From NCBI GenBank assembly GCA_030688615.1, contig JAUYIZ010000069.1, positions 1,230 through 65,229 of the forward strand: a DNA stretch of 64,000 nucleotides. The letters run 5' to 3'. The notes under the pieces are model-generated. The model was given only the letters and a program-made list of their open reading frames with translations. It did not search any database and was not told the DNA's origin. The position numbers and the translations under genes are program-made. Below, in pieces: positions 8,147 through 64,000 of this stretch. The DNA is from Desulfobacterales bacterium (GTDB lineage Bacteria; Desulfobacterota; Desulfobacteria; Desulfobacterales; JAUYIZ01). Each line of letters opens with the position of its first letter. The first letter of the stretch is position 1.

Positions 8147-8169
8147 TCCTTTGTGGCAAAAAGGGGAGG

Positions 8170-9040: not shown

Positions 9041-9074
9041 AACACTAAAAGTAGAAAGCGCAAAAGGCGTTTGA

Positions 9075-9791: not shown

Positions 9792-9836
9792 TCTTCCCCT
9801 CCGCAGAGGTTAGAAAAGGGCAGTGGTGCCACCGCT

Positions 9837-40992: not shown

Positions 40993-41015
40993 GGCGTGAG
41001 GACCGGAGCCGGCTT

Positions 41016-42230: not shown

Positions 42231-42270
42231 TTGACTCGCTGTATTCAATCTGTATACTCCTGTATACATG
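42231..42270 (+). promoter_or_regulatory. near-consensus promoter plus palindromic operator; predicted leaderless lexA-like mRNA
   Basis: -35 TTGACT (42231-36), 16-nt spacer, -10 TATACT (42253-58), ATG at 42268 with no SD. There is a perfect inverted repeat TGTATAC-tcct-GTATACA (42251-68) and three CTGTAT copies (42239, 42250, 42260). Confidence 0.5.
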
Positions 42271-43983: not shown

Positions 43984-43991
43984 GAGAATTT

Positions 43992-44996
43992 ATGGCAAAC
44001 GTTCAGAAATATTTTGAAACATTTCATAAAGAAATTCGGATGGATTTTGAACTTAACAAAGAATTAGCGGAAAAAAGAGATGTTATTTTCAACAAAATAA
44101 AAAAATCATTGGAAGAAAATCAGATGCCTTCTGTTTCAATCCTTCTTCAGGGTAGCTACATAATGAAAACCGGTGTTAAGCCTATCGAAAAGCTGGAACA
44201 CGATATTGATATTGGCCTGAAATTCTATATTGATAAAAATAAATTTACCGCCGCTGAAGTTCGCAAATGGGTGTTTGAAGCTATTAAAAAGCACACGAAC
44301 AATGTGGATGAAAAGGCTTCCTGTATTCGCGTTTCATATGAAAAAGGGTTCCATGTCGATTTGGTTGTATACGCGGTAGAAAAATCCGGATCGGATGAAA
44401 TATATAATTTGGCACATAAGGATAATGGCTGGAGACCTGCTGATCCCCCCAAACTGCTGAAACACGTAGAAAGCCTTAATGCAAAATATAAGGGAACGGA
44501 TGATCCTCTGACTTCAACAACACAATTTCGTCGAGTTATAAGATATTTGAAGCGTTGGGATGATGAAGCTGTGCCATATGAATCTAGCAGTAAACCAGCT
44601 GGGCTTGCCTATACGCTACTCTGCGGCGAATATTCAGCTGGGCCACATAAAAATGGAACTGACTCAAACGATTCTTCCATGCTTTACCAAATTGCGGAAA
44701 AAGTTTCAAACTTGTCCGGCCGCATTCAAATTTACAAGCCTACCCCTGAATATGAGGATTTGTTTTCGAAGCTTTCGGAAGCTGAAATGATTAAACTAAA
44801 ACAGCGGTTTAAAAGCTTGAAGGAAGCCCTCATGGAAGCTGACGTTGAACCAAGCGAGAGGAAGGCTTGCAAAATATTAAAGGAACAATTTGGACGTGAC
44901 TTTCCTGTTCCTGAGAAGGACGACGAAAAATCAATCCTAGGAGGCTTTTCTGTACGGACTGAAAAAACTCGAATAGATGGCAGTCGCTTTGCATAA
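43992..44996 (+). CDS. cGAS/DncV-like nucleotidyltransferase (CD-NTase, SMODS-type)
   Basis: Pol-beta NTase signature LLQGSYIMKTG (GS), HDIDIGL (DxD) and the third acidic residue in FHVDLVVY. 334 aa. AGGAG lies 6 nt upstream. Confidence 0.75.
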   Translation: MANVQKYFETFHKEIRMDFELNKELAEKRDVIFNKIKKSLEENQMPSVSILLQGSYIMKTGVKPIEKLEHDIDIGLKFYIDKNKFTAAEVRKWVFEAIKKHTNNVDEKASCIRVSYEKGFHVDLVVYAVEKSGSDEIYNLAHKDNGWRPADPPKLLKHVESLNAKYKGTDDPLTSTTQFRRVIRYLKRWDDEAVPYESSSKPAGLAYTLLCGEYSAGPHKNGTDSNDSSMLYQIAEKVSNLSGRIQIYKPTPEYEDLFSKLSEAEMIKLKQRFKSLKEALMEADVEPSERKACKILKEQFGRDFPVPEKDDEKSILGGFSVRTEKTRIDGSRFA

Positions 44997-45016
44997 AATG
45001 AGAGGATCTGAAAAAA

Positions 45017-47287: not shown

Positions 47288-47416
47288 CAGATTTAGTAGC
47301 ATTTTGGCTGGTAAATTCTTGTTTCGGGAGAGTTCGGGGAGCCTGTCGAGGCTCGAACGGAAAGTATCCCGAATCTCACATAATCGTCGAGATGTGACTT
47401 TTCAAATTTGTTTTGC

Positions 47417-47444
47417 ATGGGCTCGATTCCCGTATCCCGCTCCA
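47417..47444 (+). other. tRNA (or tmRNA) 3'-end fragment: T-arm + acceptor 3' strand + CCA; candidate att remnant
   Basis: ATGGG-CTCGATT-CCCGT (T-stem/loop/stem, with loop position 54 C instead of T), then ATCCCGC-T-CCA. The complementary 5' acceptor strand GCGGGAT is not found within ~100 nt upstream, so it is a fragment and not a gene. Confidence 0.45.
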
Positions 47445-47587
47445 TCTCTTTTTTCCCAGTTTTAAATCCCTCAACACCTTACGAAAAATCAACCGTAACT
47501 CATTCATTTATCCTTTGTTACAATTCAAGGGTATACAAGTCAATCCAAGTTACCCAAAGTTCACTAAGTGCCCCTTTTCAGAAATTT

Positions 47588-47607
47588 AAGTGGCAAAAAA
47601 GTGGCAA
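47588..47607. repeat. direct repeat AAGTGGCAA x2 (11-bp period) upstream of the HTH gene
   Basis: ttAAGTGGCAAaaAAGTGGCAAgaa, read directly. It lies 23-42 nt upstream of the ATG at 47630, just before the AAGGAGGAG SD. Confidence 0.6.
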
Positions 47608-47629
47608 GAATTCACAAAGGAGGAGAATC

Positions 47630-48205
47630 ATGAATCCATACGAGAATTTGACCCCGGAGGAGCGGCTGGATCGGATATGTCAAATACTGGTCCGCATGAT
47701 CTACAGGGCAGAGGCTAAAAGAATGGCCAGGCCGGTGGGCAACCCCATACCGACGCCCCCAAAGCCGTATTACGGCTTAAAGGAGACGGCTCAGAAGCTG
47801 AGTGTGTCAAAAAGAACGGTTCAACGCTGGATAGCTACTGGCAAGCTGATAGCCGAGAAACGACCTGATGGGCATGTTCTGATCAGGTCACGGGAAGTGG
47901 ATTCACTTATAGATCAATCTGACATAAAAAAGCTCAGAACGCGTGATGCTGAGGCTAGGGCTGGTGGCACCGTGAACAAATTCATAGGGATTGAACCGGA
48001 CCAGTTAAAAGAGGTTGGTATTGTGGTTCGCGAGACAGTCAATCGGACAAGGAAAGTCCTTATTCTCAAGTGCCCCAATGATATGAAAGTCTTAGGTGAC
48101 TTACCAGACGACTATTTTGATGCTCCCGAGGGGAAAGATTATTACCGGAACAAGAGGAAAGTTCTGGTTCGCTGTTCTAAGTGTAAGCAAGTCATATTCT
48201 TCTGA
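47630..48205 (+). CDS. excisionase/MerR-type HTH protein with unknown C-terminal domain
   Basis: YGLKETAQKLSVSKRTVQRWIATGKLIAEKRPDGHVLIRSREVDSLI is an HTH_17/excisionase-family motif. The C-terminal ~90 aa carry KCP ... CSKC. ATG 47630 follows AAGGAGGAG. Confidence 0.65.
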   Translation: MNPYENLTPEERLDRICQILVRMIYRAEAKRMARPVGNPIPTPPKPYYGLKETAQKLSVSKRTVQRWIATGKLIAEKRPDGHVLIRSREVDSLIDQSDIKKLRTRDAEARAGGTVNKFIGIEPDQLKEVGIVVRETVNRTRKVLILKCPNDMKVLGDLPDDYFDAPEGKDYYRNKRKVLVRCSKCKQVIFF

Positions 48206-48393
48206 TCTTTAATATGGTGGCTCTTACTTCCCCCGCTCTTATTTCCAGGGTATTTATCCGGTCTTATTATTTTGAAAGTGAGACTTTCGGAATTTGATCC
48301 GGGGCTAAGGCATTTGCCTTGAGGTCGCTGTCGTCTGCTATGCAGAAGGCGACATTATAGTTACAATGTCACCGAATGAAGGAATTATAATAG

Positions 48394-49239
48394 ATGACAT
48401 TAGTCCGAATGCCTAATTCAGAATCGAATATCCATACTGCGATTTCCCCAGTATTTGCATGGAATGATAACAAAAGTCCTCGCGTTGTTGGCACAGCTAT
48501 TCTTTTAGGGCCGTGTCTCGCTTTAACGGCGTTGCATGTAGTCGAAGATTTTGTGTGCCGAAATAGGCAGGAAGCCGAGGTGAATGTCAATGTCGCCGTG
48601 TACCATGCTTTTACAGGTGCGGCATGGTATGTCAGAAGAACTTGGGCGACAACTCATACTGATGCAGCCTTCTTGGGGCTCAGGCCCCAAAATGATGCAG
48701 CAAAAAATTTTAAATGGCACCGTGTCGGAATAAATCTTCATTTACCAAAGCCCGGAGAAAAAATTTTTGCTGCAGGTTTTCGTCACTCTAAAATCGATGA
48801 TGTGGATGAGGGATTCAATCAGGAGGGAATTACTGTGGTTAAGGCTAGCTTAAGTCTTCAAACCGTGAATGGAACTGTGCGGGAGTCATACGGATCTAAG
48901 CATGAGGGCCATTTGGATTTCCCCTGTTTTCAGTGCAATGCGAAATTCGATTCACAGATGAGCGGAGGGCCGGTCTTGGATGAAAGCGGATACTTGCGCG
49001 GACTTGTGTGTACGAGCTTCGAGTTCGACTCAACCGATATGTCTGAACCGGTTTCCTTTGTCGCAGGCATTCTGCCTGTTATGGCTATTAAAATTGATCG
49101 AACTTTACCAGAGCTTAACGAAGTTTCCCCCTATCATGTTCTTGATTTGGCAAGGAATGGATTCTTACCAGTAATGGGCCATGAACGGGTAATGATAACG
49201 GATCTCAAAGAAGGGCGAACCAGAATAGAATTTAAATGA
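48394..49239 (+). CDS. cytoplasmic trypsin-like (S1/Trypsin_2) serine protease
   Basis: His in LALTALHVVED, Asp in HTDAAFLGL and Ser in SQMSGGPVLDESG (GDSGGP-like). No signal peptide. Confidence 0.65.
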   Translation: MTLVRMPNSESNIHTAISPVFAWNDNKSPRVVGTAILLGPCLALTALHVVEDFVCRNRQEAEVNVNVAVYHAFTGAAWYVRRTWATTHTDAAFLGLRPQNDAAKNFKWHRVGINLHLPKPGEKIFAAGFRHSKIDDVDEGFNQEGITVVKASLSLQTVNGTVRESYGSKHEGHLDFPCFQCNAKFDSQMSGGPVLDESGYLRGLVCTSFEFDSTDMSEPVSFVAGILPVMAIKIDRTLPELNEVSPYHVLDLARNGFLPVMGHERVMITDLKEGRTRIEFK

Positions 49240-49366
49240 ATGGCATAATCGTCGGTTCCCGACACCAAATCCCGCCCAAATGCTTTGTAGGGCTTTCCCC
49301 TGATTAATCCTTCAGACTTGGCTCTTTCTTTGTTATAATTTGTTTTTCTCTGGAAACTTCGTATAA

Positions 49367-49785: not shown

Positions 49786-50301
49786 GTGCCAGAACCGATA
49801 CACGGCAAATTAAAACGATCTCTGGATGCGGCCGAAGGCTTGTATCACCGCCTTGTACTGCTTGTGGGTGAGGCAGGTTCCGGGAAGACTGGCGTTCTTC
49901 AGAAAGTTGCCGAAGAATTCGGGACATCTGTCGTCAATGTTAATCTGGCGCTTTCAAGCGAGATGCTTGATATGACGACGAAGCAGCGGTCACTGCGACT
50001 GCCGGGTATTCTCGACCAAATCGTGGCCAAACTTCGAGCACCGGTAGTCCTGGACAATCTCGAAATCCTTTTCGACAAGGACCTCAAGCAGGACCCATTG
50101 CGGTTACTTCAAGGGCTTTCAAGAAATCAGACTGTACTGGCTTCGTGGAACGGAACCTTGAACGGAGTGAGGCTGTTATATGCCGAAACAGGTCATCCCG
50201 AATACCGTAGCTACGACGCGGTCGATGCGCTGATCGTGGGCATGGATGGCGCTGCCACGGTCGTTTCGGCAAAAAACAATAGAGAGGCAGGCCAAGCATG
50301 A
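49786..50301 (+). CDS. brxF: small P-loop protein, BREX type 3 BrxF-like
   Basis: 171 aa. Walker [11 protein letters not shown], Walker B-like [13 protein letters not shown] start 6 nt after AAGGAG. Its stop overlaps the start of the large brxC-like ATPase (ATGA). Confidence 0.6.
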
Positions 50302-53300
50302 AATACGGAGACCTTATCCAATTCGACCCGATTGAGTCGGTCGTTCAGTTGCGTGACGCCGATAAATCGAGCGCGGCGCATCATTTGGTAAACACCTATG
50401 TCATTTCAGAAGAAATGGCCGAACGGCTCACGCAGCTTGTCATCCCTCAGATGCAGTTCGACCAGCCGGTTGACAATAAAGGCCTGCTGGTGGTCGGTAA
50501 CTACGGGACCGGTAAATCGCACTTGATGTCGGTGGTCTCCAGCATTGCTGCAGATGCCGCCCTGCTGGAAGAGCTGAAGAACGAAGGCGTCCGCGCTGCA
50601 GCCACCAAGATTGCCGGCCGTTTTAAAGTTATTCGTACTGAGATCGGTGCCACCACCATGTCTCTGCGCGACATTCTGGTAGCCGAGTTGGAAGAAAACC
50701 TCGAAAAGCTCGGTGTCGAATATGTTTTCCCTGAAGCGGGGACTATCACCAGCCACAAACGGGCATTCGAAGACATGATGGTCAAGTTCGGCCAGGTCTT
50801 CCCCGAACACGGCATGCTGCTGGTAGTCGATGAGCTGCTCGACTATCTTCGCACGCGCAAGGATCAGGAACTTATTCTCGATCTGAACTTTCTACGCGAA
50901 GTTGGCGAGGTCTGCAAGGATCTGCGCTTCCGAATCATGGCAGGTGTTCAGGAAGCCATTTTTGACAGCCCGCGCTTCGCCTTTGTCTCCGACAGTATCC
51001 GTCGCGTGAAAGACCGCTTCGAGCAGATCCTTATTGCCCGCAACGACGTCAAATTCGTGGTGGCTGAGCGCCTGCTCAAGAAGACCGCCGAGCAGCAGGC
51101 TAAGATTCGCGACCATCTCATTCCTTATGCTAAATACTACAGCGGGCTCAATGAGCGAATGGACGAGTTTGTCCGGCTCTTCCCGGTGCATCCCGATTAC
51201 ATCGATACCTTTGAGCGGGTCACCGTTGTGGAAAAACGAGAAGTACTCAAAACCTTGTCCATGGCCATGAAGGGCCTCCTAGGAAAGGCCGTGCCACAGG
51301 AGGAACCTGGCCTAATCGCATTCGACAGTTACTGGAAAACGCTCAAGCAAAATGCTTCCTTTCGAGCTATTCCAGAAATCAGAGCGGTCATCGATTGCAG
51401 CCAGGTGTTGGAATCCCGCATCGAGAACGCTATCAGCCGCAAGCAATACAAGCCGATGGCGCTACGCCTGATCTATGCGCTGTCTGTTCACCGCCTAACT
51501 ACCGGCGACATCTATGCGCCTATGGGTGCATCCGCCGAAGAATTTCGCGATCGCCTTTGTCTATTTGATCCGCTGATCGTTGAAATGGGCAGCGACGAGC
51601 CCGACAAGGATCTGCAGACCCATGTGGAAACGGTGCTGCGAGAGATTCATAAAACAGTCAGCGGCCAGTTCATCTCCTTCAATGCCGACAACAGCCAGTT
51701 CTATCTTGATCTTAAGAAGACTGACGACTTCGACGCCCTGATCGACAAACGGGCTGAGAGCTTGGGCCAAGCTCAGCTCGACCGTTTCTACTACGAGGCT
51801 CTCAAGCGGGTTATGGAATGCCAGGACACCACCTACGTGACTGGCTACAAGATTTGGCAGTACGAACTAATCTGGCAGGAACGCAAGGTAGCCCGTAGCG
51901 GGTACCTTTTTTTTGGCGCACCGAATGAACGCTCTACCGCCGTCCCGCAGAGAGACTTCTACCTATACTTCATCCAACCCAACGATCCGCCCCGTTTCAA
52001 GGACGACAAGGTCAATGATGAGGTTTTCTTCCGACTGAAAGACACGGATGAGGAATTCCAGACTGCGCTGAAGAGCTACGCTGCTGCCTTGGACCTTGCA
52101 GCCACCTCATCGGGCCACGCCAAAGCCACTTATGAATCCAAAGCCAACGGTTTTCTGAAGAAGATGGTCCATTGGTTGCAGAAGCACTTAACGGATGCCT
52201 TCGAGGTCAGCTATCAGGGCCGCACAAAATCCATGACGGAATGGACCAAGGGCAAAGCCATCCGCGACCTGGCTGGCCTTTCGCCCCAAGAGACTATTAA
52301 CTTTCGCGATATGGTGAGTACCGTTGCTGGCTTGTGCTTGGCGCCAAACTTCGAGAACCAGGCTCCACACTACCCTCTCTTTTCGGTCCTGATCACCGGC
52401 AACAATCGAGCCCAGGCAGCGCAGGACGCCCTGCGTGCCATCGCCGGGCAGAATCGCACCAAACAGGCCACTGCCGTGTTGGACGCACTGGAACTGCTCG
52501 ACGGCGAGAGGATCGACCCCTACAAGTCGAAATATATCAAGTTCATCATCGATGTCGTCAAGGCCAAGGGGCACGGCCAGGTGGTCAACCGCACCGAGAT
52601 AATCCAGGACGACCACGGTCTTGAGTATATGAACCCGGGAGGCTCGCGCCTGGAACCGGAATTGGTCATCGTCCTAGTGGCCGCGCTGGTTTACTCCGGC
52701 GATATTGTGCTCTCCATTCCTGGCAAGAAATTCGACGCCACCGGGCTACAGCAGCTTGCTGCGACCAACATGGACGAGCTAGTCCGCTTTAAGCACCTGG
52801 AACAGCCCAAGGAATGGAACTTACCCGCGCTTAAGGCACTGTTCGAACTGCTCGGCATGACGCCGGGTATGGCCCAGCTCATCACTCAAGGGAAGGATGA
52901 GCCGGTGCAGAATCTGCAACAAGCGGTGGGTAAGATCGTCAAGCGCATTGTCATGACCCAGCAGAGCCTACGCGAAGGACTTTCCTTCTGGGGCCTGGAT
53001 CTGTGCGCGAGTAGCGACCTGGCCAGCCGGGCCAACGGGCTGGATGATGCCAAAGGCTTCTTTGAATCGCTTCAGGTCTATTCATCTCCGGGCAAGCTTA
53101 AAAACTTCCGCTACAGCGCTCCCGAAGTTTTGGTCCACGAAAAAGCTCTCAAGGCTCTTGATGAACTGGACGCCCTGCGCGTGTTCATCATGGACCACAG
53201 TTCGACGGCGTCTTGGCTCTCTACTGCCGAAGCGGTGCTACCCGCCGACCATGACTGGGTGGATCGCACGAAGACCACCCGGCAGGATGTGCTGGATTCC

Positions 53301-54029
53301 CTCAAAGAGGTGGATCTGACCGAGCTGGCAAGCCGATCCCAAACCATTGGGGCCAAGATGCAAAAGCTGAAAAAGGATTACACCGTCGCCTATATCGGCC
53401 TGCACACCAAAGCCCGGCTGGGCGTGAACGACGACAAACGAAAAGCGGGCTTGCTTAACGATCAGCGGTTGCAAACCCTGCTCAAGCTTGCCGTGATCGA
53501 CCTGATGCCCAGGCAGCAGCTTACCGATTACCAGAACCGGCTGGCCGGTCTGAAGAGCTGCTTCACCCTGACCGAGCAAAACCTCGACGCAACGCCGATC
53601 TGCTCGCATTGTGGGTTCCGGCCTTCGGTAGAAACCGACGCGGCGGCAGGCACACAGATGATCGACCAGATGGATATCCAGCTCGACGCCATGGTGGCAG
53701 CTTGGACCTCCAGCATTCTCAGCAACCTGGAGGATCCGATCACTCAGGCTAACATGGATTTACTGAAGATCGACGACCGCCATCCGCTGGAGGTCTTCAT
53801 CAAATCAAAAGAACTCCCGGTGCCGTTGGACAGTAATTTCGTCCATGCCCTGAAGGAAGTACTCTCCGGTCTGGTCAAAGTGACCATCAAGGCTCAGGAG
53901 CTGCAACAGGCCCTGCAGGTCACCGATGGTACAGCCACTCCGGCCGAGATGAAGAAACGTTTTGATGCGTACATTGATCGGCTCATTAAGGGCAAGGATC
54001 CGGCAAAAGTACGGATAGTGGTGGAGTAA
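50298..54029 (+). CDS. brxC: large P-loop ATPase, BrxC/PglY-like
   Basis: 1243 aa. N-terminal [12 protein letters not shown] then Walker [12 protein letters not shown] and Walker [12 protein letters not shown]. The size, position after brxF and long helical C-terminus fit BREX BrxC-class proteins. Confidence 0.6.
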
Positions 54030-54031: not shown

Positions 54032-55918
54032 ATGGATATTGAGACATCCAGTGCTATCAGGCTGTTCTTTCCCAATCCATCACTGACATTGGTCTATTAC
54101 GAGGCCTTGGCGAATGCATTGGACGCTGGTGCAACAGAAGTATTTATCGATATAGAAGTGCAAGCATTTGATAAGCCCGATACGCTAAAAGTTACCGTTA
54201 CGGACAATGGCGATGGTTTCACCGATGTGAACTTTGACCGCTTTAAAACGCTGTTGAAACCCAGAGACAAGTTTCATAAAGGTTTAGGACGACTTGTCTT
54301 TCTCAACTACTTTGAGAGAGTCGAAATCACTAGCGTCTGGGGTAAGAAACAAAGAAACTTCACGTTTAAAAGTGGTTTCAGCGATAAGGCGCCTATTCAA
54401 GATGTACAGGTGAAGCAGCCAAACAAAACGTCATTAACATTTACCGGCTTTTCCAAAGAGCGAGTCAAAGCTTATGACGATCTTAAGCCGGATGCTCTAA
54501 AGCCAATGATCATCGAACAGTTTTTGCCTACGCTTGATGCACGTAAGCGAGAAGACAAGACATTTAAGATCGTCCTTAGCTTGGCAACCAATGAAGTTAA
54601 CTCACAGAAGGAATTCTTCCCTCACGAGACCACGATAACACCCGACGACTTGCCGTCGATGACTAGGGTAACAATCAAGGATGAAAGCCTGGACGCCATT
54701 TCGTCTATTGAGATGTTCTATCATATTAAACAGGTAGCCGGTAGAGGAAGTTCCCTCACTGCTTTCAGTATTGATGGGCGAACAATACCAGCAAGCCTGA
54801 TACCCGAATCATCATTCCCGCTAGGTTACTTTTGCGTTTTTCTTTTTGAATCGGAAATGTTTCACTCCAACACCGATGGTGCGCGCCAAAAGCTTGTGCT
54901 GCCTGATGGCTTGCAAGAAACACGCCTTTATCGCGTATTGAGCCGTGAACTCGGCAAGGTGTTGTCAGAGAATATTCCTCAGATTACCGAAAAAAACGAA
55001 AAGACCAAAGCGCAGTTCGAAGAAAGATTTCCGCACCTGCTCGGCTACTTTGAGAAGAATACCGTTGGTCTGATTGATCGGGACGACGCTTTGACTATTG
55101 CTCAACAAAAATTCTTTCGAGTTCAGAAAGAAGTGCTTCAATGCGAAACACTTAGTGAATCAGATTATGCGAAGTCACTTGAGCTGTCGTCTCGTACGCT
55201 GACGGAGTACATCTTGTATCGCGACAAAATTATTAGCCGCATGAAAACTATGACCGAAGACAATGCTGAGTCGGATATACACAACCTGATCGTTCCTCGT
55301 TACAAGGAATTTGCACAAGGCGCCATGCCATCAGAGATATATCAGAACAATGCATGGTTGCTTGACGACAAGTTTATGGTGTTTCAGACCATTCTCAGTG
55401 AGAAGAGAATGGATACCATTATCAACGCCATACGTCTTGATGAAGAAAGTGTCGGTGATACGAGCAGACCCGATATTACCATGATTTTTTCGGCAGACCC
55501 GGCTGATGTGAAGGCTGTTGATGTTGTCGTTGTCGAGATCAAAAAGAAAACGAACGATGAAAAAGAAAATCAATATGCCATCAATCAATTGCTTGATCGG
55601 GCTGTAAAGCTGGTTGAGCACTGCCCTCACATCCAAAGAATTTGGTACTACGCAGTCATCCAGGTCGGCGACACTATGGCAGTGCGCCTGCGCCAACAAA
55701 ACTGGGCACCGCTGTTCTCGATGGGAAAAGTATTCTATCAGGAGTTTAAAACTGCGCGGCAGGATGGAAGCCTAGTCCCAACACCAACATTTGTTATGTC
55801 GTTTGATGCCATCGTGGCAGATGCCAAGTGCAGGAATCACACTTTTCTCGAAATCTTGCGAGAAGGCATGAAGAAGTACGCTGAAGAACAGGATTCTGAT
55901 GGCTGGGGCAGAGACTAA
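54032..55918 (+). CDS. GHKL (Bergerat-fold, MORC/HATPase_c-like) ATPase with C-terminal PD-(D/E)xK-like nuclease motif
   Basis: N-box YYEALANALDAGA, G1 box VTDNGDGF, G2 KGLGRLVF. C-terminal ESDIHNLIVP ... RPDITMIF ... VDVVVVEIKKK ... QLLDRAV has an E/PD/ExK/Q arrangement, as in restriction-endonuclease-fold (Shedu/DUF4263-like) domains. Confidence 0.6.
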   Translation: MDIETSSAIRLFFPNPSLTLVYYEALANALDAGATEVFIDIEVQAFDKPDTLKVTVTDNGDGFTDVNFDRFKTLLKPRDKFHKGLGRLVFLNYFERVEITSVWGKKQRNFTFKSGFSDKAPIQDVQVKQPNKTSLTFTGFSKERVKAYDDLKPDALKPMIIEQFLPTLDARKREDKTFKIVLSLATNEVNSQKEFFPHETTITPDDLPSMTRVTIKDESLDAISSIEMFYHIKQVAGRGSSLTAFSIDGRTIPASLIPESSFPLGYFCVFLFESEMFHSNTDGARQKLVLPDGLQETRLYRVLSRELGKVLSENIPQITEKNEKTKAQFEERFPHLLGYFEKNTVGLIDRDDALTIAQQKFFRVQKEVLQCETLSESDYAKSLELSSRTLTEYILYRDKIISRMKTMTEDNAESDIHNLIVPRYKEFAQGAMPSEIYQNNAWLLDDKFMVFQTILSEKRMDTIINAIRLDEESVGDTSRPDITMIFSADPADVKAVDVVVVEIKKKTNDEKENQYAINQLLDRAVKLVEHCPHIQRIWYYAVIQVGDTMAVRLRQQNWAPLFSMGKVFYQEFKTARQDGSLVPTPTFVMSFDAIVADAKCRNHTFLEILREGMKKYAEEQDSDGWGRD

Positions 55919-58761
55919 TGGGGACGGACATGAGCATGGGTGATTTGTTCGAAGACCAGCTAGAAGAAAATCAAAAGATAAGGTCAGGACCGGTGACCTG
56001 CCTCGGCATGACTTTCGAAAACGACGAGGCACGCCGCATCCATTTTACCGAGGAACTGCGCAAGAAGCTGCAGGACCCGGAGTTTCGCAATATCGAAGGT
56101 TTTCCCATCGGCAGCGAGGAGGACATTTTGAACCTGAGCGATCCGCCGTACTACACCGTTTGCCCGAACCCGTGGCTCACCGACTTCATCGCCGAGTGGG
56201 CGGTGCAAAATCCGGAACAGCCCGACGGCTACCACTATCACCGTGAGCCATTTGCTGCCGATGTGAGCGAGGGGAAAAACGACCCAATTTACAACGCCCA
56301 TTCCTATCACACCAAGGTGCCGCACAAGGCCATCATGCGTTACATCCTCCATTACACACAGCCGGGGGACATCGTGTTTGACGGGTTCTGTGGAACCGGG
56401 ATGACGGGAGTAGCGGCGCAGATGTGCGGCAACCGCGAAGTAGTTATGTCTCTTGGTTACCAGGTGAAGCCGGACGGAACCATTTTGCAGGAAGAGACGG
56501 ATGAAGATGGTAAAAAGGTTTGGCGGCCGTTTTCGAGGTTGGGCGTTCGCCGAGCTGTACTGAATGATCTTTCACCAGCGGCAACCTTCATCGCCTACAA
56601 CTACAACACACCTGTTGATGTAAGTGTTTTTCAGCGTAGGTACAGAGAAGCCATAAGAGAGTTTAAGAAACAAACAAAATGGATGTGGGAAACTCTACAT
56701 TCAGATGGAAAGACAATAGGCAAAATTAACTATGTTGTATGGTCAGAGGTTTACTCATGTCCAGAATGCTTAAAAGAAATTGATTACTTCACGCATGCGT
56801 TCACAAATAGTGCTGATGGTTCATTTGAATACACACCGGAATTTGCTTGCCCCAATTGTGGATCTTTATGCGCAAAAAGTCCCACAAAAAAATCTTTGGC
56901 TCACAAGCTATCTAGGGTTAGGCAGACGCTGTTTGATGAGAAGCTTCAAGAGACGATAAGAACGCAAAAAAGATTACCTGTTCTTATAAATTACAGTATT
57001 GGCACGAAGAGATTCCAGAAATTATTAGATTTGTCAGATCAAGAAAATATTTTACGAATTGAACGGCTTTCTATTATCAATAATATTCCTATCGACAGGA
57101 TGCCTGAAGGAGATGAATCGCGTCGAAATGACGACGAGGGTATGAGTCACGTACATCATTTCTATACGAAGAGAATTTTGGCTTCGCTGTCAATTTTGGA
57201 GAAAGTCATCGGCGAAGATCCGCAGTTGAACTTTCTAATGGGGAGCACGCTACCGAAACTTACTATTTTAAATCGCTACATGCCGCAGCATGGTGGGCGA
57301 GCATTGGTGGGGCCGATGGCTAACACGCTTTATGTGCCACCTGTTGGTGTTGAAAATAATGTTATAGACCAACTTGAGTTTCAATCAAAAAAAATTATTC
57401 AGGCATTAACACCGCTCTCAGGATCAATTATCTGTACTCATGCAGCACAATCAGTGTCGATTCCGGAGGCTTCTGTGGACTATATATTTATAGATCCGCC
57501 ATTTGGAGCCAATATCATGTATTCGGAATTGAGTTTCATGAGGGAGGCTTGGCTAAGAGCTAAAACTAACAATAAGCCAGAGGCTGTCGAAAACAAAACC
57601 CAAAAAAAGGGGATTGATGAGTATCGTCATTTAATGACTGAATGTTTCGCATCGGCTTTCAAGTGCCTCAAACCTGGCCGTTGGATGACGGTCGAATTTT
57701 CAAACACAAAAGCAAGTGTTTGGAATAGTATTCAAAATTCGCTCTCTGATGCTGGATTCATCGTCGCATCAGTAGCAGCACTTGATAAAACCCGTGGTGG
57801 TTTGCACTCAATGCTTGGGCCTACTGCCGTCAAACAAGACCTAGTCATCTCGGCCTACAAACCCAATGGAGGGTTTGAAGAACGCTTTCAAAAGGAGGCG
57901 CAAACCGAAGAAGGCGTGTGGGTTTTTGTCCGAACGCATTTGAAGTATCTGCCGGTGACCAAGCAACAGGGAGCCTTACTGCAGTTCGTTCCGGAACGTG
58001 ACCCACGCATCCTGTTCGACCAGATGGTGGCCTTCTACGTCCGCAAGGGCTACCCCGTGCCAATTTCCAGCCAGGAGTTCCAGATCGGGCTCGCGCACCG
58101 CTTCATCGAACGTGACGGCATGTATTTCCTGCCGGATCAGGTGGCCGAATACGATCGCAAGAAAATGACAGCGGGTATTTCTGGTGAATATGTCGATGCA
58201 TTATTTGTTAAGGATGAATCTACAGCTATCGAATGGCTTAGAGCACGCATTCGCAAAAAGCCACAGACATTTTCCGACATTAACCCACAGTTCATGCAGC
58301 AGCTCGGCGGGTGGAGCAAGAACGAGGCTCAGCTTGACCTGCGCGAGCTGCTGAACCAGAACTTCCTCTGTTACGACGGCAAAGGCCTGGTGCCGGAGCA
58401 GATCCACGCCTACCTCTCCACCAACTGGAAAGAGCTGCGCAATCTGCCCAAGGATGCCCCAGCCCTGGTCGCTAAGGCCCGCGACCGTTGGTACGTTCCC
58501 GATCCCAACAAGGCCGGCGACCTCGAGAAACTGCGCGAGAAGGCCTTGCTCAAGGAGTTCGAGGAATACAAAGAGGTCAAGAAGAAGCTCAAGATCTTCC
58601 GTCTGGAAGCTGTCCGCGCCGGATTCAAGAAAGCATGGCAGGAGCGAGACTACGCCGTCATCGTTGCCGTGGCCGACAAGATTCCAAACAACGTCCTGGA
58701 AGAAGATCCCAAACTACTGATGTGGTACGACCAGGCGGTTACAAGAATGGGAGGAGAATAA
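55918..58761 (+). CDS. large N6-adenine/N4-cytosine-type DNA methyltransferase with internal zinc ribbon (PglXI-like)
   Basis: YHTKVPHKAIMRYILHYTQPGDIVFDGFCGTGMTG (motif X/I) and DYIFIDPPFG (motif IV) are separated by ~350 aa containing CPEC ... CPNC. The start overlaps the GHKL stop (TAATG). Confidence 0.7.
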   Translation: MGTDMSMGDLFEDQLEENQKIRSGPVTCLGMTFENDEARRIHFTEELRKKLQDPEFRNIEGFPIGSEEDILNLSDPPYYTVCPNPWLTDFIAEWAVQNPEQPDGYHYHREPFAADVSEGKNDPIYNAHSYHTKVPHKAIMRYILHYTQPGDIVFDGFCGTGMTGVAAQMCGNREVVMSLGYQVKPDGTILQEETDEDGKKVWRPFSRLGVRRAVLNDLSPAATFIAYNYNTPVDVSVFQRRYREAIREFKKQTKWMWETLHSDGKTIGKINYVVWSEVYSCPECLKEIDYFTHAFTNSADGSFEYTPEFACPNCGSLCAKSPTKKSLAHKLSRVRQTLFDEKLQETIRTQKRLPVLINYSIGTKRFQKLLDLSDQENILRIERLSIINNIPIDRMPEGDESRRNDDEGMSHVHHFYTKRILASLSILEKVIGEDPQLNFLMGSTLPKLTILNRYMPQHGGRALVGPMANTLYVPPVGVENNVIDQLEFQSKKIIQALTPLSGSIICTHAAQSVSIPEASVDYIFIDPPFGANIMYSELSFMREAWLRAKTNNKPEAVENKTQKKGIDEYRHLMTECFASAFKCLKPGRWMTVEFSNTKASVWNSIQNSLSDAGFIVASVAALDKTRGGLHSMLGPTAVKQDLVISAYKPNGGFEERFQKEAQTEEGVWVFVRTHLKYLPVTKQQGALLQFVPERDPRILFDQMVAFYVRKGYPVPISSQEFQIGLAHRFIERDGMYFLPDQVAEYDRKKMTAGISGEYVDALFVKDESTAIEWLRARIRKKPQTFSDINPQFMQQLGGWSKNEAQLDLRELLNQNFLCYDGKGLVPEQIHAYLSTNWKELRNLPKDAPALVAKARDRWYVPDPNKAGDLEKLREKALLKEFEEYKEVKKKLKIFRLEAVRAGFKKAWQERDYAVIVAVADKIPNNVLEEDPKLLMWYDQAVTRMGGE

Positions 58762-58764: not shown

Positions 58765-60687
58765 ATGATTACTAAATGGAAGATTTTTAACTTTAAATCC
58801 ATTCGAGAGGAAACCGAGCTGGATTTGGGCCCGCTTACGATCTTTGCGGGTGCGAATAGCAGCGGCAAGAGCACATTTATTCAATCTATCCTACTTGTTG
58901 CCCAGACGTTGGCCCATAAAGTCGGATCTCGTTCCGTCGTATTGAATGGCGCCCTTACCAGCTTGGGCCAGTTTGATGACCTGAAATCTAGCGATAGCGA
59001 GTCGGATCAAATCACCATTAAATGCACCTGCCGCCCGACGTCGGGGCAGGAGACTGCAATTCCGAGGCGTTCCCAATTTGCTTCTCGTAGCGCTTTTTAT
59101 TACGGGCAGCGCGCCAATCAGCTGCAAGAAATCGCTTGTGAGATTTCTTTCGACGCTAATCCCTCAAGTTCTCAGCGTGATCTGCTTCAGATCCAACCTC
59201 GGCTTTTTGCTACGCAATTGAATTGCATATCAAGAGACGAAGATAACGTTGATCAGAAAGCGGACATCGCCATTCACCACTCCGACAAGGCCGTTTCCGA
59301 AATTGAAGGAGCTGATGGCATTGGTGAAATCGATGACCAGGTACGCGCCAGTTTAGCCTACGCCGTTGAACTAGACGAAAGCTCCATGGCCGAGGTCAAA
59401 GATGACTTTCGCTCGGCTAAGCCTATCGGCTGTATTTTGAGACACTTCCTTCCCGAGAGAATCATATACGCTATCGATACCGTTGAAGAGACTTCGAACG
59501 CCATTACGCTGGCACTCCAAGACGATGGTCGCCGCCCATTGGTCTTGCGCCGCATGATGGGCAGAGAGATTATTCTACCTAAAGAGATCATTGCGGTTTT
59601 GCGCGAAGTACTCGAAGGCACAATCGATTTGGATCAAACATTCAAGGACAAATATAAGCAGAAGTCATTGTTTGGTTCTGAGTCTGAAACTTTTACATAT
59701 CGGGCATGGCAAGAACATCTACGCAGCCTGCCACGCGAGGATCGCCTGAAGATTCAGCAGGTGCTGCGTGAGCGTGAGGATCTTTTTGCCCGCATTCATG
59801 AGGCCATGAAAGCATCAATGGCTGAGAAGTCAGAGACGCATGCCGTTGTCCAGCCTCGACCACCGCGCTTAATAACGGAAGCCACCTGGTACCTGGAAAA
59901 CTTCTTTGCCTCATCTTTGAAATACCTCGGACCATTGAGGGATGCGCCCAAACCGCTATACCCACTCGCACCAGGAGCTGACCCGTATGACGTAGGTCTG
60001 CGCGGTGAACACACAGCTTCCATTCTTGATTTGCACAAGAACAAAAAAGTCCGCTACATTCCATCGGTAAATTTCAAAGATCCGGTAATTGATCGCAAGA
60101 CGGTGACCCGGTCACTCGAAGCGGCGGTTATCGATTGGCTCCAATATCTGAGTGTGGCACGTATAGTAAATAGCCGGGACCGGGGTAAGCTCGGTCATGA
60201 ACTGAAGGTAGGCCTTTCTAATTCGGATAGCACATACGACCTCACGCATGTGGGCGTAGGCGTTAGTCAAGTTTTACCGATTCTCGTTATGTGTCTTCTG
60301 GCCGATGCCGACTCCACAATGGTTTTTGAGCAACCGGAGCTGCATTTACATCCAAAAGTTCAGACTCTACTAGGTGATTTCTTTCTTTCGATGGCGTTAT
60401 GCAACAAGCAATGCATTGTTGAGACCCACAGCGAATATATTATTGATCGCCTCCGTTTCCGAATTGCAGCGGCATCACCCAAGAAGGAGTTGAACAGCCA
60501 GACCAAGATTTATTTCGTGGAAAAGCCATCGAATGGGTCATCTTTCCGGGAAGTGGCGATTAACGAGTATGGAGCCATTTCAGAGTGGCCGGAAGGGTTC
60601 TTTGACCAGTCCCAACAACAGGCCGAAGAGATCCTAAGAGCGGCAGCGATGAAACGGAAAGCAAGCCGCGGGAAGAATGATGCATAG
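58765..60687 (+). CDS. ABC/OLD-type AAA ATPase (AAA_15/21-like) with DUF3696-like C-terminus
   Basis: Walker A FAGANSSGKST, Walker B/D-loop MVFEQPELHLHP, H-loop VETHSEY, and a C-terminal EWPEGFFDQ motif. Starts 3 nt after the methyltransferase stop. Confidence 0.65.
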   Translation: MITKWKIFNFKSIREETELDLGPLTIFAGANSSGKSTFIQSILLVAQTLAHKVGSRSVVLNGALTSLGQFDDLKSSDSESDQITIKCTCRPTSGQETAIPRRSQFASRSAFYYGQRANQLQEIACEISFDANPSSSQRDLLQIQPRLFATQLNCISRDEDNVDQKADIAIHHSDKAVSEIEGADGIGEIDDQVRASLAYAVELDESSMAEVKDDFRSAKPIGCILRHFLPERIIYAIDTVEETSNAITLALQDDGRRPLVLRRMMGREIILPKEIIAVLREVLEGTIDLDQTFKDKYKQKSLFGSESETFTYRAWQEHLRSLPREDRLKIQQVLREREDLFARIHEAMKASMAEKSETHAVVQPRPPRLITEATWYLENFFASSLKYLGPLRDAPKPLYPLAPGADPYDVGLRGEHTASILDLHKNKKVRYIPSVNFKDPVIDRKTVTRSLEAAVIDWLQYLSVARIVNSRDRGKLGHELKVGLSNSDSTYDLTHVGVGVSQVLPILVMCLLADADSTMVFEQPELHLHPKVQTLLGDFFLSMALCNKQCIVETHSEYIIDRLRFRIAAASPKKELNSQTKIYFVEKPSNGSSFREVAINEYGAISEWPEGFFDQSQQQAEEILRAAAMKRKASRGKNDA

Positions 60688-61729
60688 TCTGCCTAGCGTA
60701 ACAATTGACGCAGGCGTGCTCGCGGTGCCTCATATTAATTGTGCCAAGGATGACGCATTCCAGTATGTGGATACGCTCCTTGATTGGAGCAAGTTGCTTG
60801 ATGAACCGTGGGTCGCCATTTGCATGAGTGAGCTGGCCTCTGAGACTCTTCTCTCCGATGGCTTGTTCCCAATGAGAGAGCAACTCAGAGAACTATTCAA
60901 TGCTCATGGTATAGTGGAATACGATGTCAATACCGTCGCCAGAATTGCAAATCAGCTTCTAGCAATTACTCCATCCTTTGAGACCTACTATCGGATCAAG
61001 GATGTCTTGTCAGAGCATCTGGAAACAGATCCGGATGTTATTCGGCTTACAACTCATGCCGGGCTCCAATCTGATCTTGCCCGATGCATAACGCTGATCG
61101 CTGTCTTGCGGCGCCACTGCTCTCAACCTCTTGGCGGCCATTCACTCATACTGAGAGAGGCGCCCACGCAGGTGATCCAATTAAGGGCCCAGATCCACGA
61201 GCTCGAACATACCAGAGATGATATTCCTGCTTTGCCGTGCCCGCCAGAGTTCTTTGAAGGCGATGTGCTGGTCTGTGACAATTTTCATGGGCTTATCGAA
61301 TGTCTCGATGAGTCAGCAATACTAGTCGGAGCGTCTGATGCTGTTGGAATGAAGCTTGCCGTCCGAATTGCCCTGTTCAAGTATGCCATTGCGCAAGGCG
61401 ATACCCATGATTGGGACGGCGTGATTGTTCCAACCATAGGGCCTGAATTTCTGGAGTTGTGCCAGCAGGTTTGTTCAGAGCAAAGAGATTCATTGCCTCC
61501 AAAAATTCTCCGATCAATCGTAGAGGCCATCAATGGGTTAAACCTTCCGGCTGTGCACGCGCTCCGTACGGGATCGGGTGGTGGTGATCCGCAACGGTTG
61601 CGAGGCTTGGATAGGGCACAGCGTCGCGATATCGACAAGGAATTCCATCTCCATTACTGGGAATGCGCCGACGGGACAGTCGAATTGGCGTCAGTCGTTT
61701 ATCACAATGATTTTTCAATTCCTAGGTGA
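60677..61729 (+). CDS. 350-aa protein of unknown family, translationally coupled to the ATPase
   Basis: Overlaps the ATPase gene by 11 nt. I recognise no motif with confidence. N-terminal VTIDAGVLAV is reminiscent of a PIN-type first strand, and C-terminal RRDIDKEFHLHYWECADGTVELASVVYHNDF is reminiscent of a RelE/ParE-like fold. Both resemblances are speculative. Confidence 0.5.
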   Translation: MMHSLPSVTIDAGVLAVPHINCAKDDAFQYVDTLLDWSKLLDEPWVAICMSELASETLLSDGLFPMREQLRELFNAHGIVEYDVNTVARIANQLLAITPSFETYYRIKDVLSEHLETDPDVIRLTTHAGLQSDLARCITLIAVLRRHCSQPLGGHSLILREAPTQVIQLRAQIHELEHTRDDIPALPCPPEFFEGDVLVCDNFHGLIECLDESAILVGASDAVGMKLAVRIALFKYAIAQGDTHDWDGVIVPTIGPEFLELCQQVCSEQRDSLPPKILRSIVEAINGLNLPAVHALRTGSGGGDPQRLRGLDRAQRRDIDKEFHLHYWECADGTVELASVVYHNDFSIPR

Positions 61730-61734: not shown

Positions 61735-64000
61735 ATGCAGGATGACTGGCAATTCAGCACCGTTCATAACAGCGCCTGCAAGGTCATCGAAGAACAGACC
61801 TTGTGGGGGCAAACGGTTTGCCGTGTCTGGCTGCCGAACCAGGACACGGTGGTACGCGTGTCCCGCTCCGCCTTGCGACCGTTTAATACCGACCTGCAAC
61901 CGGAAATTGAGGCTGGACGGATTTCCTATGTGGCGGCTGCAGCCAAGGTGGCCGAAGTGCTCGAAGGTTCCACCCGCGCCAGTGACGGTCATGTGCTGCT
62001 AGCGCCCATGGAGTCCAATGTCATCCCGTTGCCGCATCAGATTCATGCGTTGTCTCGAGCGATCTCCGGTGATCGCGTGCGTTATCTACTGGCCGACGAG
62101 GTTGGTCTAGGTAAAACCATCGAGGCCGGTCTGGTCATGCGCGAACTCAAGCTACGCGGGTTGGTGCGCCGGACATTGGTTGTCTCACCGAAAGGTATCG
62201 CTACCCAGTGGGTTGCAGAAATGCATACCCACTTCAATGAACAGTTCCAGCTCGTTTTGGGTGACGATATCAGCACACTGCAACGCCTGACTCAAGGGGT
62301 TAATCACAGGAGCTCGGCCTGGTCGATGTTCGATCAGGTCATCGTTACTCTCGATTCAGTTAAGCCTATGGACAAGCGGCGCGGATGGACTGCGGAACGC
62401 GTTGCCGAATACAATCACAGTCGGTTTGAAGATCTGATTACCGCCGGTTGGGATCTGGTAGTGGTGGACGAAGCGCACCGTCTGGGCGGCAACACGGATC
62501 AAGTGGCCCGCTATAAACTCGGGAAAGGGCTGGCAGCGGCCGCGCCCTATGTGTTACTGCTTTCGGCCACGCCCCACCAGGGTAAAACCGATGCCTTCCA
62601 TCGTTTGATGAATCTGCTGGATGAGGATACATTTCCGGATGTCGAGAGTGTCTCCCGCGACCGGGTGGCCCCGTATGTCATCCGCACAGAAAAGCGCAAG
62701 GCCGTCGATATTGATGGCAAGCCGCTCTTTAAGTCCCGCCGCACGCAGATGGTGCCGGTGGCCTGGGAGAGTCGTCATCACCTGCAGCAGCTCCTTTATG
62801 AGGCTGTGACGGACTACGTGCGCGAGGGCTACAACCAGGCCCTGCGGGAGAAAAAGCGTCACATCGGTTTTCTGATGATCCTGATGCAGCGTCTGGTAGT
62901 CTCCAGCACCCGGGCGATCCACACCACACTTGAGCGACGGCTGGCGGTACTCAAGGATGGTGAGCAGCAAGCCAGTCTGCGCCTGGCGGCACTTGATAAC
63001 GACGGAGATAGCACGGAGAACTTCGATGAGTTGTACGATATGGATGGCCAAGAGCTTCTCGATGAGTTGCTGAAATCCCATGTGTCGGCACTGCAGAACG
63101 AAGGCAGCCATGTGGAGACTCTGCTTGAGGCAGCGGTCCGTTGCGAACAGACAGGACCGGACGCAAAGGCCGAGACGCTGATTGAATGGATTTATCAATT
63201 GCAGGCCGCGGAAAACGAGCCGGATCTGAAGGTGTTGATTTTTACTGAGTTTGTGCCGACCCAAGAGATGCTCAAGGAGTTTCTTGAAACGCGCGGCATA
63301 TCAGTTGCCACCCTGAACGGCTCCATGGATATGAAGAAACGCAAGCAGGCCCAAGATGCTTTTCGCAAGACACACCGTGCGCTCGTTTCAACCGACGCGG
63401 GCGGCGAAGGCTTGAACCTGCAGTTTGCCCACGTTATCATCAACTACGATATCCCCTGGAACCCGATGCGGCTGGAACAGCGGATTGGCCGCGTGGATCG
63501 TATCGGCCAGCCCAAGACGGTGCGGGCAATCAATTTCGTTTTTGAGGATTCGGTCGAGTTCCGCGTCCGTGAAGTGCTGGAGAAGAAGCTATTGGTGATC
63601 TTTAACGAGTTCGGTATCGACAAGACTGGTGACGTGCTCGACTCCGCCCAGGCTGGTGAATTGTTCGAGGGTGTATTCGCCTCTGCGATCCTGAATCCTG
63701 ATGGTATCGAGACATCTGTCGATCACATGGTAACCCGGATTCGGGATGAGATTCAACAGGCGCGCGAGTCGTCGGCCATCTATGGTATCTCCGAAGAACC
63801 GGATGTGCAGACCGCTGAACGTCTACGCTCTCATCCGCTGCCTCATTGGGTGGAGCAGATGACGGTAGGTTATCTCAACTCCCATGGTGGTGTGGCCAAC
63901 CGCAAGCGTTCCTGGTGGGAACTGCATTGGCCTGATGGTCAGGAATATCGCAAAGCTGTGTTCAACGCTCGGGAGGCGGATCGGCTGATCGATGCCACGT
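61735..64000 (+). CDS. SNF2/RapA-like superfamily-2 helicase (BrxHII-like), 3' end beyond window
   Basis: Hand translation is open from ATG 61735 to the window end. Motif I LLADEVGLGKTIEA, motif II VVVDEAHRLGG, LLLSATPHQGK, STDAGGEGLNLQ, and motif VI QRIGRVDRIGQ. It is absent from the ORF track because no stop occurs in the window. Confidence 0.8.
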   Translation, partial: MQDDWQFSTVHNSACKVIEEQTLWGQTVCRVWLPNQDTVVRVSRSALRPFNTDLQPEIEAGRISYVAAAAKVAEVLEGSTRASDGHVLLAPMESNVIPLPHQIHALSRAISGDRVRYLLADEVGLGKTIEAGLVMRELKLRGLVRRTLVVSPKGIATQWVAEMHTHFNEQFQLVLGDDISTLQRLTQGVNHRSSAWSMFDQVIVTLDSVKPMDKRRGWTAERVAEYNHSRFEDLITAGWDLVVVDEAHRLGGNTDQVARYKLGKGLAAAAPYVLLLSATPHQGKTDAFHRLMNLLDEDTFPDVESVSRDRVAPYVIRTEKRKAVDIDGKPLFKSRRTQMVPVAWESRHHLQQLLYEAVTDYVREGYNQALREKKRHIGFLMILMQRLVVSSTRAIHTTLERRLAVLKDGEQQASLRLAALDNDGDSTENFDELYDMDGQELLDELLKSHVSALQNEGSHVETLLEAAVRCEQTGPDAKAETLIEWIYQLQAAENEPDLKVLIFTEFVPTQEMLKEFLETRGISVATLNGSMDMKKRKQAQDAFRKTHRALVSTDAGGEGLNLQFAHVIINYDIPWNPMRLEQRIGRVDRIGQPKTVRAINFVFEDSVEFRVREVLEKKLLVIFNEFGIDKTGDVLDSAQAGELFEGVFASAILNPDGIETSVDHMVTRIRDEIQQARESSAIYGISEEPDVQTAERLRSHPLPHWVEQMTVGYLNSHGGVANRKRSWWELHWPDGQEYRKAVFNAREADRLIDAT

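Follow-up and report, generated by a model that had tools for sequence, protein, structure and literature searches.

In a stretch of 64,000 nucleotides (nt) from a Desulfobacterales bacterium (assembly GCA_030688615.1, contig JAUYIZ010000069.1, positions 1,230–65,229 of the forward strand; this whole stretch is called the window below) two overlapping genes are located inside a type 3 bacteriophage exclusion (BREX) operon, between the methyltransferase gene pglXI and the helicase gene brxHII. The first encodes an OLD-type ATP-binding cassette (ABC) ATPase of 640 amino acids (aa) with a C-terminal DUF3696 tail and the second a partner protein of 349 aa, the model of which ends in a YafQ/RelE-like RNase domain. 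We favour, with moderate confidence, the reading that both make up an abortive-infection module of the Menshen (NsnB–NsnC) type, complete with these two components, which does without NsnA and is carried as long-term cargo in the pglXI–brxHII slot of type 3 BREX. Menshen with its three components NsnA, NsnB and NsnC reportedly goes back to Millman 2022. An initial annotation of this DNA had described a nested and possibly undescribed ATPase–effector pair, co-transcribed with the genes of a BREX-like operon.

Gene layout

Both open reading frames are present on the forward strand as initially annotated, the ATPase gene at 58765–60687 (640 aa, ATG start, stop codon TAG at 60685–60687) and the partner gene at 60677–61729 (350 aa, stop codon at 61727–61729). 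In the partner gene ATG occurs in frame at both 60677 and 60680, and as the recorded identical protein and nearly all homologues are 349 aa long and begin with MHSL, the second one is probably the start (60680–61729, 349 aa). The two genes thus do overlap as had been claimed, but probably by 8 nt and not by 11 nt. The distances to the BREX genes were given correctly: the stop codon TAA of pglXI (58759–58761) is followed by a gap of 3 nt and the ATG of the ATPase gene at 58765, with GGAGGAG just upstream of this ATG, and 5 nt separate the end of the partner gene (61729) from the ATG of brxHII (61735). A simple scan for promoter-like and terminator-like sites, which are rarer here than in shuffled sequence, revealed a promoter-like site ahead of brxF, the first gene of the operon (49311–49339), and inside the pair only two weak matches, one promoter-like (59437–59465, 9/12) and one terminator-like (60712–60730, 3 GC pairs). 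With junctions of 3 and 5 nt, an overlap of 8 nt and few and weak internal matches, the layout fits a co-transcription of the pair with BREX.

The ATPase

The ATPase is matched by the Pfam families AAA_15 (2e-25), AAA_21 (5e-19) and DUF3696 (PF12476, 5.8e-12, residues 578–622) and by phrog_21420 of the PHROG collection (1e-105). Among the PADLOC models Menshen NsnB ranks first (4.1e-77), followed by HEC-03B (1.5e-51), PDC-M55A (2e-42) and, in fourth place, AriA (2.5e-29) of the phage anti-restriction-induced system (PARIS). AriA, GajA, PtuA and Old belong to the weaker hidden Markov model (HMM) matches, and the nearest solved relative by sequence is the OLD-family protein 6p74 (7e-8). At the level of sequence comparison these matches identify the protein as an ABC ATPase of the OLD type that ends in a DUF3696 tail and is closest to NsnB.

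The motifs GANSSGKST, FEQPELHLHP, ETHSEY and EWPEGFFDQ, to which the initial annotation had pointed, could all be located on an alignment of 13 ATPase homologues (A6) from which we read their conservation, and the DUF3696 tail proposed with them agrees with the Pfam match. In the Walker A motif GANSSGKST (residues 29–37; 58849–58875, all features of the pair being on the forward strand) G29 and N31–S36 are invariant and A30 and T37 nearly so. The signature-like motif THVGVGVSQ (residues 494–502; 60244–60270), in which GxG replaces SGG, is invariant apart from the nearly invariant V500. In the Walker B region FEQPELHLHP (residues 521–530; 60325–60354) E-Q replaces the usual D-E, and E522, Q523, P524 and E525 are invariant, as is the complete H-loop ETHSEY (residues 553–558; 60421–60438). 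The DUF3696 tail (60496–60630) includes EWPEGFFDQ at residues 607–615, of which WPEGFFDQ (608–615) is invariant or nearly so. The likewise invariant GPLR392 is probably a replacement of the glutamine of the Q-loop by arginine, with the Q-loop assigned by position only.

Relative to the 345-position NsnB model the ATPase carries a variable insert (residues 89–365; 59029–59859). By column identity the conservation of the protein is lowest here, with mean values of 0.50–0.59 versus 0.79–0.84 in the ATPase lobes and the tail, and the residues from about 233 to 365 are missing from the ATPase versions of about 500 aa found in two loci (L048 and L049). As the candidate sensor region, this insert may perceive the phage.

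The partner protein

The partner protein has 641 relatives at E ≤ 1e-3, and the best 120 of these are all more than 70% identical to it, of full length (about 349 aa) and distributed over many phyla. At 50% identity the family comprises 807 clusters, 184 of them below 1e-30, with nearly all members being of full length. This conservation across the whole family led us to reject the possibility that the pair arose as a chance reading frame or is a pseudogene. In agreement with the initial annotation, which could not place the protein in any family, it matches no family of Pfam, PADLOC (E ≤ 1), NCBIfam or PHROG, and none of these family-model searches found an HNH, TOPRIM or DUF4435 signature. 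For 62 members of the family (61 relatives and the window protein) no family model was matched recurrently, and PADLOC gave just two isolated weak matches among the 61 relatives, to TnsB and PDC-M04A, and none to an NsnC model. A profile of the family compared with the PDB sequences gave nothing meaningful, the search against predicted viral structures (BFVD) gave nothing, and tblastn against the PLSDB plasmids and the INPHARED phages found no match.

An AlphaFold2 model of the partner, calculated from the 62-sequence alignment, reached a mean predicted local distance difference test score (pLDDT) of 94.3 and a predicted template modelling score of 0.89. Using Foldseek against the PDB, the model matched the toxin YafQ (4q2u_B) with a probability of 1.00 and a target-normalised template modelling score of 0.67 over 95 columns. 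Further matches were YoeB, HigB, ParE2, GraT and CdiA-CT, and only RelE-superfamily (BECR) toxins reached a meaningful probability. When residues 1–245 were modelled alone (pLDDT 93.2) the RelE-type matches were gone and the best PDB match had E = 0.58, which places the YafQ-like domain in the C-terminal part, at about residues 251–349 (61430–61726), with the modelled order helix–helix–four strands. Thus, the model shows a YafQ/RelE-like (BECR) RNase fold at the C-terminus, and the RelE-like ending suspected in the initial annotation was borne out. This link to YafQ is purely structural, as the sequence profiles show nothing and hhalign of the family against one approximate YafQ sequence gave no match.

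The C-terminal domain is also the better conserved part of the protein (0.54 versus 0.36–0.41 elsewhere). R315 and W327 are invariant, and H293, R296, R308, R316, H325, Y326, E335 and H342 are conserved in at least 90% of the sequences. This set of histidines and arginines is of the type seen in YafQ and in the PB-BECR1 domain of NsnC; the NsnC of S. silvestris has been described to carry a BECR domain with YafQ as closest structure and an H-R-H triad in PB-BECR1 (Li et al., NAR 2025, PMC12065111).

Residues 1–245 (60680–61414) are predicted to form an N-terminal alpha/beta domain with a Rossmann-like order of strands and helices, followed by a beta-hairpin and a helical linker. The PIN-like first strand proposed in the initial annotation was not confirmed, as no PIN domain was among the PDB matches of this domain model. 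D10 and E101 are the only conserved acidic positions of this part (acidic in 92% of the sequences). The N-terminal part is a probable ATPase-docking or target-recognition part, with the docking role proposed in analogy to the Menshen models.

Linkage and distribution

Using the alignment of close partner relatives (A1) we scanned one genome per GTDB species, which biases the sample to relatives that are mostly more than 55% identical. The scan gave 46 partner loci from Lentisphaerota, Verrucomicrobiota, Planctomycetota, Bacillota, Myxococcota, Acidobacteriota, many Pseudomonadota and others, with partner identities up to 87%. Wherever the DNA upstream of the partner gene was present, an ATPase homologue lies immediately upstream (45 of 45 loci), and the two genes always adjoin and overlap. 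About 36 of the pairs are located within type 3 BREX, either between pglXI and brxHII or, where brxHII is absent, between pglXI and pglZ. One pair stands beside a type I restriction–modification system (L030), six have neither BREX nor a DUF262 protein as neighbour (L031, L036, L041, L047, L049, L052), and two are found without an intact BREX and with PglXI-like matches nearby only (L040, L048). The pair therefore occurs both with and without BREX.

A second scan, seeded on the ATPase, covered viral contigs and revealed 16 loci with a long ATPase (514–667 aa, and longer than 610 aa in every locus except one). A member of the partner family (332–348 aa) follows in 15 of these loci, with HMM E-values of 1e-10 to 1e-30 and an hhalign probability of 99.9; for the remaining locus (L136) no partner reading frame was found. 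In three IMG/VR contigs (L140, L141 and L147, at about 4596–9947) the pair directly follows a P2-type gpA replication gene, a position which we take to be the known defence hotspot of P2 prophages. These stand-alone and viral loci answer a question raised with the initial annotation, as partner homologues accompany the ATPase there without BREX. A further 40 viral loci encode shorter ATPases, and their partners form one BLAST cluster of 40 members; PDC-M55B was matched by 23 of the 61 viral proteins scanned, a set that includes upstream neighbours. This PDC-M55B-type cluster is a different family from that of the window partner (hhalign probability 0.1). In a further IMG/VR contig (L198) a shorter ATPase with a partner of this other cluster is also found directly after a P2-type gpA gene.

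Among the scanned neighbours of the pair in the window, in the stand-alone loci and in the viral loci no DUF262/GmrSD_N protein, as expected for NsnA, was present. The BREX genes next to the pair vary themselves. In two Planctomycetota loci (L044, 2471–8097, and L045, 874–6473) two tandem PglXI-like methyltransferases of about 920–970 aa each precede the pair. In several others (L014, L015, L024–L026, L028, L029 and L046) brxHII is lost or truncated and the pair abuts pglZ, showing that the helicase is dispensable for keeping the pair.

The pglXI–brxHII slot

Seeding a metagenome scan with type 3 BrxC yielded 80 loci, in about 37 of which the DNA after pglXI could be read. The slot holds the ATPase–effector pair in ten loci, nothing in three, where pglXI abuts brxHII, and other genes in the remaining ones; the pair is thus absent from about 27 of these 37 type 3 BREX loci. 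A DUF3644 protein of about 355–360 aa is the sole cargo in L054, L075, L081 and L123, AAA_21 plus DUF4276 proteins occupy the slot in L063 and L094 and GmrSD-like proteins in L099 and L131, and other ABC ATPases and helicases are found there as well. Even two BREX cores with a BrxC 90–91% identical to that of the window (L054 and L059) hold other cargo. These varied contents identify the pglXI–brxHII slot as a cargo hotspot. Over 33 loci that contain the pair, the divergence of the ATPase (Spearman 0.94) and of the partner (Spearman 0.83) follows that of BrxC very closely, and such tight co-divergence argues for a stable long-term passenger of one BREX lineage and not for a recent insertion.

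In two loci (L055, 18533–19606, and L100, 16104–17171) the ATPase is 84% and 53% identical to that of the window and the partner just 22–24%, though it belongs to the same family by HMM, and the partner motif RRDID..HLHYW is changed to FRTHL..LRLMFW. Judged from these sequences, this looks like a diversification or replacement of the effector against a conserved ATPase, as described for NsnC.

Proposed mechanism and alternatives

If the pair is indeed an abortive-infection module of the Menshen type, an oligomer of the ATPase would keep the effector inactive via its paired DUF3696 tails, in analogy to the predicted NsnB4–NsnC2 complex, in which paired DUF3696 tails clamp the N-domain of NsnC (PMC12065111), and to the solved assemblies of Septu, PARIS and Gabija. 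A phage cue would then alter the nucleotide state or the conformation of the ATPase. As no NsnA is present, we assign the sensing to the ATPase itself, where it would most plausibly proceed through the fast-evolving insert of about 280 residues. The nucleotide-dependent change of the ATPase would free or activate the effector, the RNase domain of which might cut mRNA or tRNA, so that translation stops and the infection is aborted. Within BREX the pair could serve as a second, suicidal layer upon failure or inhibition of BREX.

Several observations weigh against this reading. The E-Q in the Walker B region could mean a poor ATP hydrolysis, and the switch may then differ from that of PARIS or Septu. 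The Foldseek E-value of the YafQ match is weak (0.044), because just about 95 of the 349 residues align, and the sequence profiles miss the likeness to YafQ. As neither an NsnC model nor a PIN domain was matched, the resemblance of the partner to NsnC may reflect analogy and not homology. Finally, the co-divergence with BrxC and the fixed position could instead mean a functional integration with BREX.

This last possibility leads to the alternative that survives best, although we consider it rather unlikely: the pair might be a functional part of the BREX lineage, in which PglXI, BrxC or BrxHII as methylation readers replace NsnA and signal the ATPase to unleash the RNase, giving type 3 BREX an RNA-directed effector arm. 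Such a role would suit the position between pglXI and brxHII, which is the same in about 36 genome and 10 metagenome loci, the junctions of 3 and 5 nt, the close tracking of BrxC and the lack of the sensor NsnA in the loci scanned. Canonical Menshen is often found beside such systems too, with 27.9% of its loci adjoining BREX or restriction–modification systems (PMC12065111). However, the same pair occurs without any BREX gene within 10 kb and also after P2-type gpA on viral contigs, it is absent from most sampled type 3 BREX loci, nearly identical BREX cores carry other cargo in the slot, and any stably linked passenger would co-diverge with BrxC too. Somewhat less likely still appears the most far-reaching possibility, that in this particular type 3 BREX lineage the pair has been wired into BREX, with DNA-surveillance proteins replacing NsnA and triggering the RNase. 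If true, this would be a natural hybrid of an epigenetic system directed at DNA and an abortive effector that it drives against RNA, and it would help to approach the old question of how BREX stops phages.

It is also improbable, in our opinion, that the pair is a PARIS-like guard against anti-restriction, in which the ATPase senses an inhibitor of BREX such as an Ocr-like DNA mimic or a S-adenosylmethionine lyase and fires the RNase as soon as BREX is disarmed. The ATPase does match AriA, and the pair resides within BREX and in one locus (L030) beside a type I restriction–modification system. PARIS is said to have been found in the P2 prophage defence hotspot, and pairs of the family directly follow P2-type gpA on viral contigs. 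The role of such a guard has been proposed for the OLD-ABC dyads in BREX (PMC12839542). Nevertheless, the partner is no TOPRIM/DUF4435 protein like AriB and the NsnB score of the ATPase is far above its AriA score; such a guard would moreover be a special case of the abortive-infection module that we favour and not a true alternative to it. We regard it as very improbable that the pair is a toxin–antitoxin-like addiction module which mainly stabilises a mobile BREX island and in which the ATPase would neutralise a RelE-type toxin. The toxin fold of the partner, the gene overlap with the putative neutraliser in first place and the apparently high mobility of the whole cassette (86% identity across phyla) speak for it. 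However, a small and labile antitoxin is missing, an ABC ATPase of 640 aa whose nucleotide-binding motifs are conserved would be atypical as an antitoxin, the relatives stand in a classic defence context and addiction and abortive infection can coexist.

Host operon and defence island

The operon around the pair had been called BREX-like, which was correct and can be given more precisely, as its PADLOC matches (7.7e-61 to 0) identify it by sequence as a bona fide type 3 BREX. It begins with brxF (49786–50301, BrxF 7.7e-61) and brxC/pglY (50298–54029, BrxC and Pfam DUF6079 both E = 0), followed by pglXI as the upstream border of the slot (55918–58761, PglXI E = 0) and brxHII, an SNF2 helicase gene, as its downstream border (61735–64000, BrxHI|BrxHII E = 0), all on the forward strand. 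The end of the window cuts brxHII, which is complete (961 aa) on a sequence-identical twin contig (L001); there it is followed by the gene of a 381-aa protein, by pglZ and, at the position of brxA, by a gene of 267 aa. The type 3 order brxF–brxC–pglXI–brxHII–pglZ–brxA is thus found with its first four genes in the window and with pglZ and the gene at the brxA position on the twin contig.

Two additional proteins are encoded within this operon. The 381-aa protein (8299–9444 of L001) shows weak matches to metallo-beta-lactamase folds and is absent from all other loci compared, and its position between brxHII and pglZ may be a third variable position of the operon. Between brxC and pglXI (54032–55918, forward strand) a protein of 628 aa is encoded which has a GHKL (HATPase_c) ATPase domain in its N-terminal part and no PADLOC match, and which matches phrog_6203 only weakly. 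L018 is the only other one, among more than 120 type 3 BREX loci, in which this protein was found (80% identity), and the same interval holds 1–6 kb of other genes in many other type 3 BREX loci, which suggests that brxC–pglXI is a second cargo slot of type 3 BREX. We also considered the GHKL protein and the 381-aa protein as substitutes for NsnA and rejected both, as hardly any of the other loci with the pair contain them.

Upstream of BREX the window contains a type II operon of the cyclic oligonucleotide-based antiphage signalling system (CBASS) at 42901–47287 on the forward strand. It consists of a patatin-like CapV (42901–43983), a DncV-like CD-NTase (43959–44996) and a Cap2 with ThiF/E1 and JAB domains (45017–47287), and is preceded by a gene for an rve-family integrase (40764–42011) and one for a LexA-like repressor (42268–42888). 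Between CBASS and brxF (47408–49239, forward strand) genes for an HTH_17 protein of 265 aa and for a trypsin-like peptidase of 281 aa are located, which might be a regulator or accessory pair for one of the systems. The guanine–cytosine content drops to 0.40–0.43 at 42–48 kb of the window. A defence island occupies the right third of the window.

Significance

With this analysis a large effector family (807 clusters at 50% identity) is defined together with its dedicated long DUF3696 ATPase, a family that is modelled by none of the libraries searched. Current tools would at best label the ATPase and, in the absence of NsnA and of any match for the partner, would not call a system. On the reading that we favour, a Menshen-type transducer–effector core can exist without its supposed sensor, which bears on the way Menshen perceives phages and makes the insert of the ATPase the prime suspect for sensing. 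Within type 3 BREX, in turn, abortive or restriction modules accumulate in a cargo slot between pglXI and brxHII, and the pair has been retained there across many phyla while changing at about the rate of the BREX core. It is therefore a good test case for the cooperation of layered defences in one operon. As the general concept of an ABC ATPase and a nuclease nested in BREX has already been published, the gain lies in definition and testability and not in a new principle.

Comparison with known systems

Of the interpretation given in the initial annotation, the nested ATPase–effector defence pair is supported. The general theme of the pair was published in 2025–2026 (PMC12065111, PMC12839542), and to call it possibly undescribed, as in the initial annotation, was too strong: the ATPase falls into the group of NsnB, HEC-03B and PDC-M55A, the layout resembles that of NsnB–NsnC and ATPase–nuclease dyads in BREX are known. 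The HMM search proposed there as a check gave a divided result, with the ATPase matching NsnB and the partner no PADLOC model.

Compared to the YafQ/RelE toxins of type II toxin–antitoxin systems, the partner shares the fold of its C-terminal 95 or so residues and conserved histidines and arginines at comparable places. In contrast to these toxins the domain is only the C-terminal third of a 349-aa protein without similarity at the sequence level, encoded between the gene of the 640-aa ATPase and brxHII with no DinJ-like antitoxin. PARIS, Septu (PtuA–PtuB), Gabija (GajA) and P2 Old also use an OLD-type ABC ATPase for the control of a nuclease effector, with a proposed activation by release or allostery, but the effector here has a predicted RelE/YafQ-type RNase fold instead of TOPRIM, DUF4435 or HNH, and a DUF3696 tail is not named for those families in the literature compared. 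The pair is not a PARIS system either, with AriA as just the fourth-best match of the ATPase and a partner without DUF4435 or TOPRIM. PDC-M55 and HEC-03 are two unvalidated PADLOC candidates which also consist of two genes and whose ATPases PDC-M55A and HEC-03B match that of the window; the window partner family, however, matches neither PDC-M55B nor HEC-03A.

OLD-ABC ATPases together with HNH, restriction endonuclease or PIN nucleases have been reported from BREX loci of 594 taxa, and these dyads were read as backup suicidal effectors (Rakesh & Krishnan, NAR 2026, PMC12839542). Our pair belongs to the same general phenomenon, which includes non-TOPRIM nucleases such as 'PIN endoRNases', while the text of that study contains no BECR/RelE effectors, DUF3696, pglXI–brxHII slot or co-divergence and has Menshen in its reference list only. 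Further BECR effectors in Menshen-like loci are described in a 2026 preprint (10.64898/2026.08.28.747851).

Closest of all is Menshen, in which NsnA acts as a ParB–DUF262 sensor, NsnB as an OLD-ABC transducer with DUF3696 and NsnC as the effector, the latter combining an inactive PIN N-domain with a polymorphic C-terminal toxin that is most often a YafQ-like BECR domain (PMC12065111). The differences concern all three components. NsnA (ParB–DUF262 plus ParBDB) was not found in the loci examined, and in the window the upstream gene is pglXI; the ATPase of about 640 aa carries an extra insert of about 280 residues relative to the NsnB model; and for the partner neither an NsnC model nor, in its N-domain, a PIN domain was matched. 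As the Menshen census of Li et al. was seeded on NsnA, pairs without NsnA lie outside of it (PMC12065111). On the side of the similarities, the ATPase scores best with NsnB among the PADLOC models, and AAA_15 and the DUF3696 tail are present in both. In S. silvestris NsnB the Walker B D-E is changed to E-N, SGG to GxG and the Q motif to arginine (PMC12065111), which corresponds to the E-Q dyad, the GxG and the GPLR motif described here. The downstream partner gene overlaps the ATPase gene in the same way and encodes a predicted C-terminal BECR RNase domain with YafQ as nearest solved structure, the effector diversifies against a conserved ATPase, and an association with BREX or restriction–modification systems is frequent. 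By analogy, the pair would work like the NsnB–NsnC core, yet it stands outside Menshen with respect to the NsnA gene and the NsnC models. The initial observation is thus a real one, and its novelty lies not in a new class of system but in the variant, an NsnA-less Menshen-like module with an unmodelled effector family.

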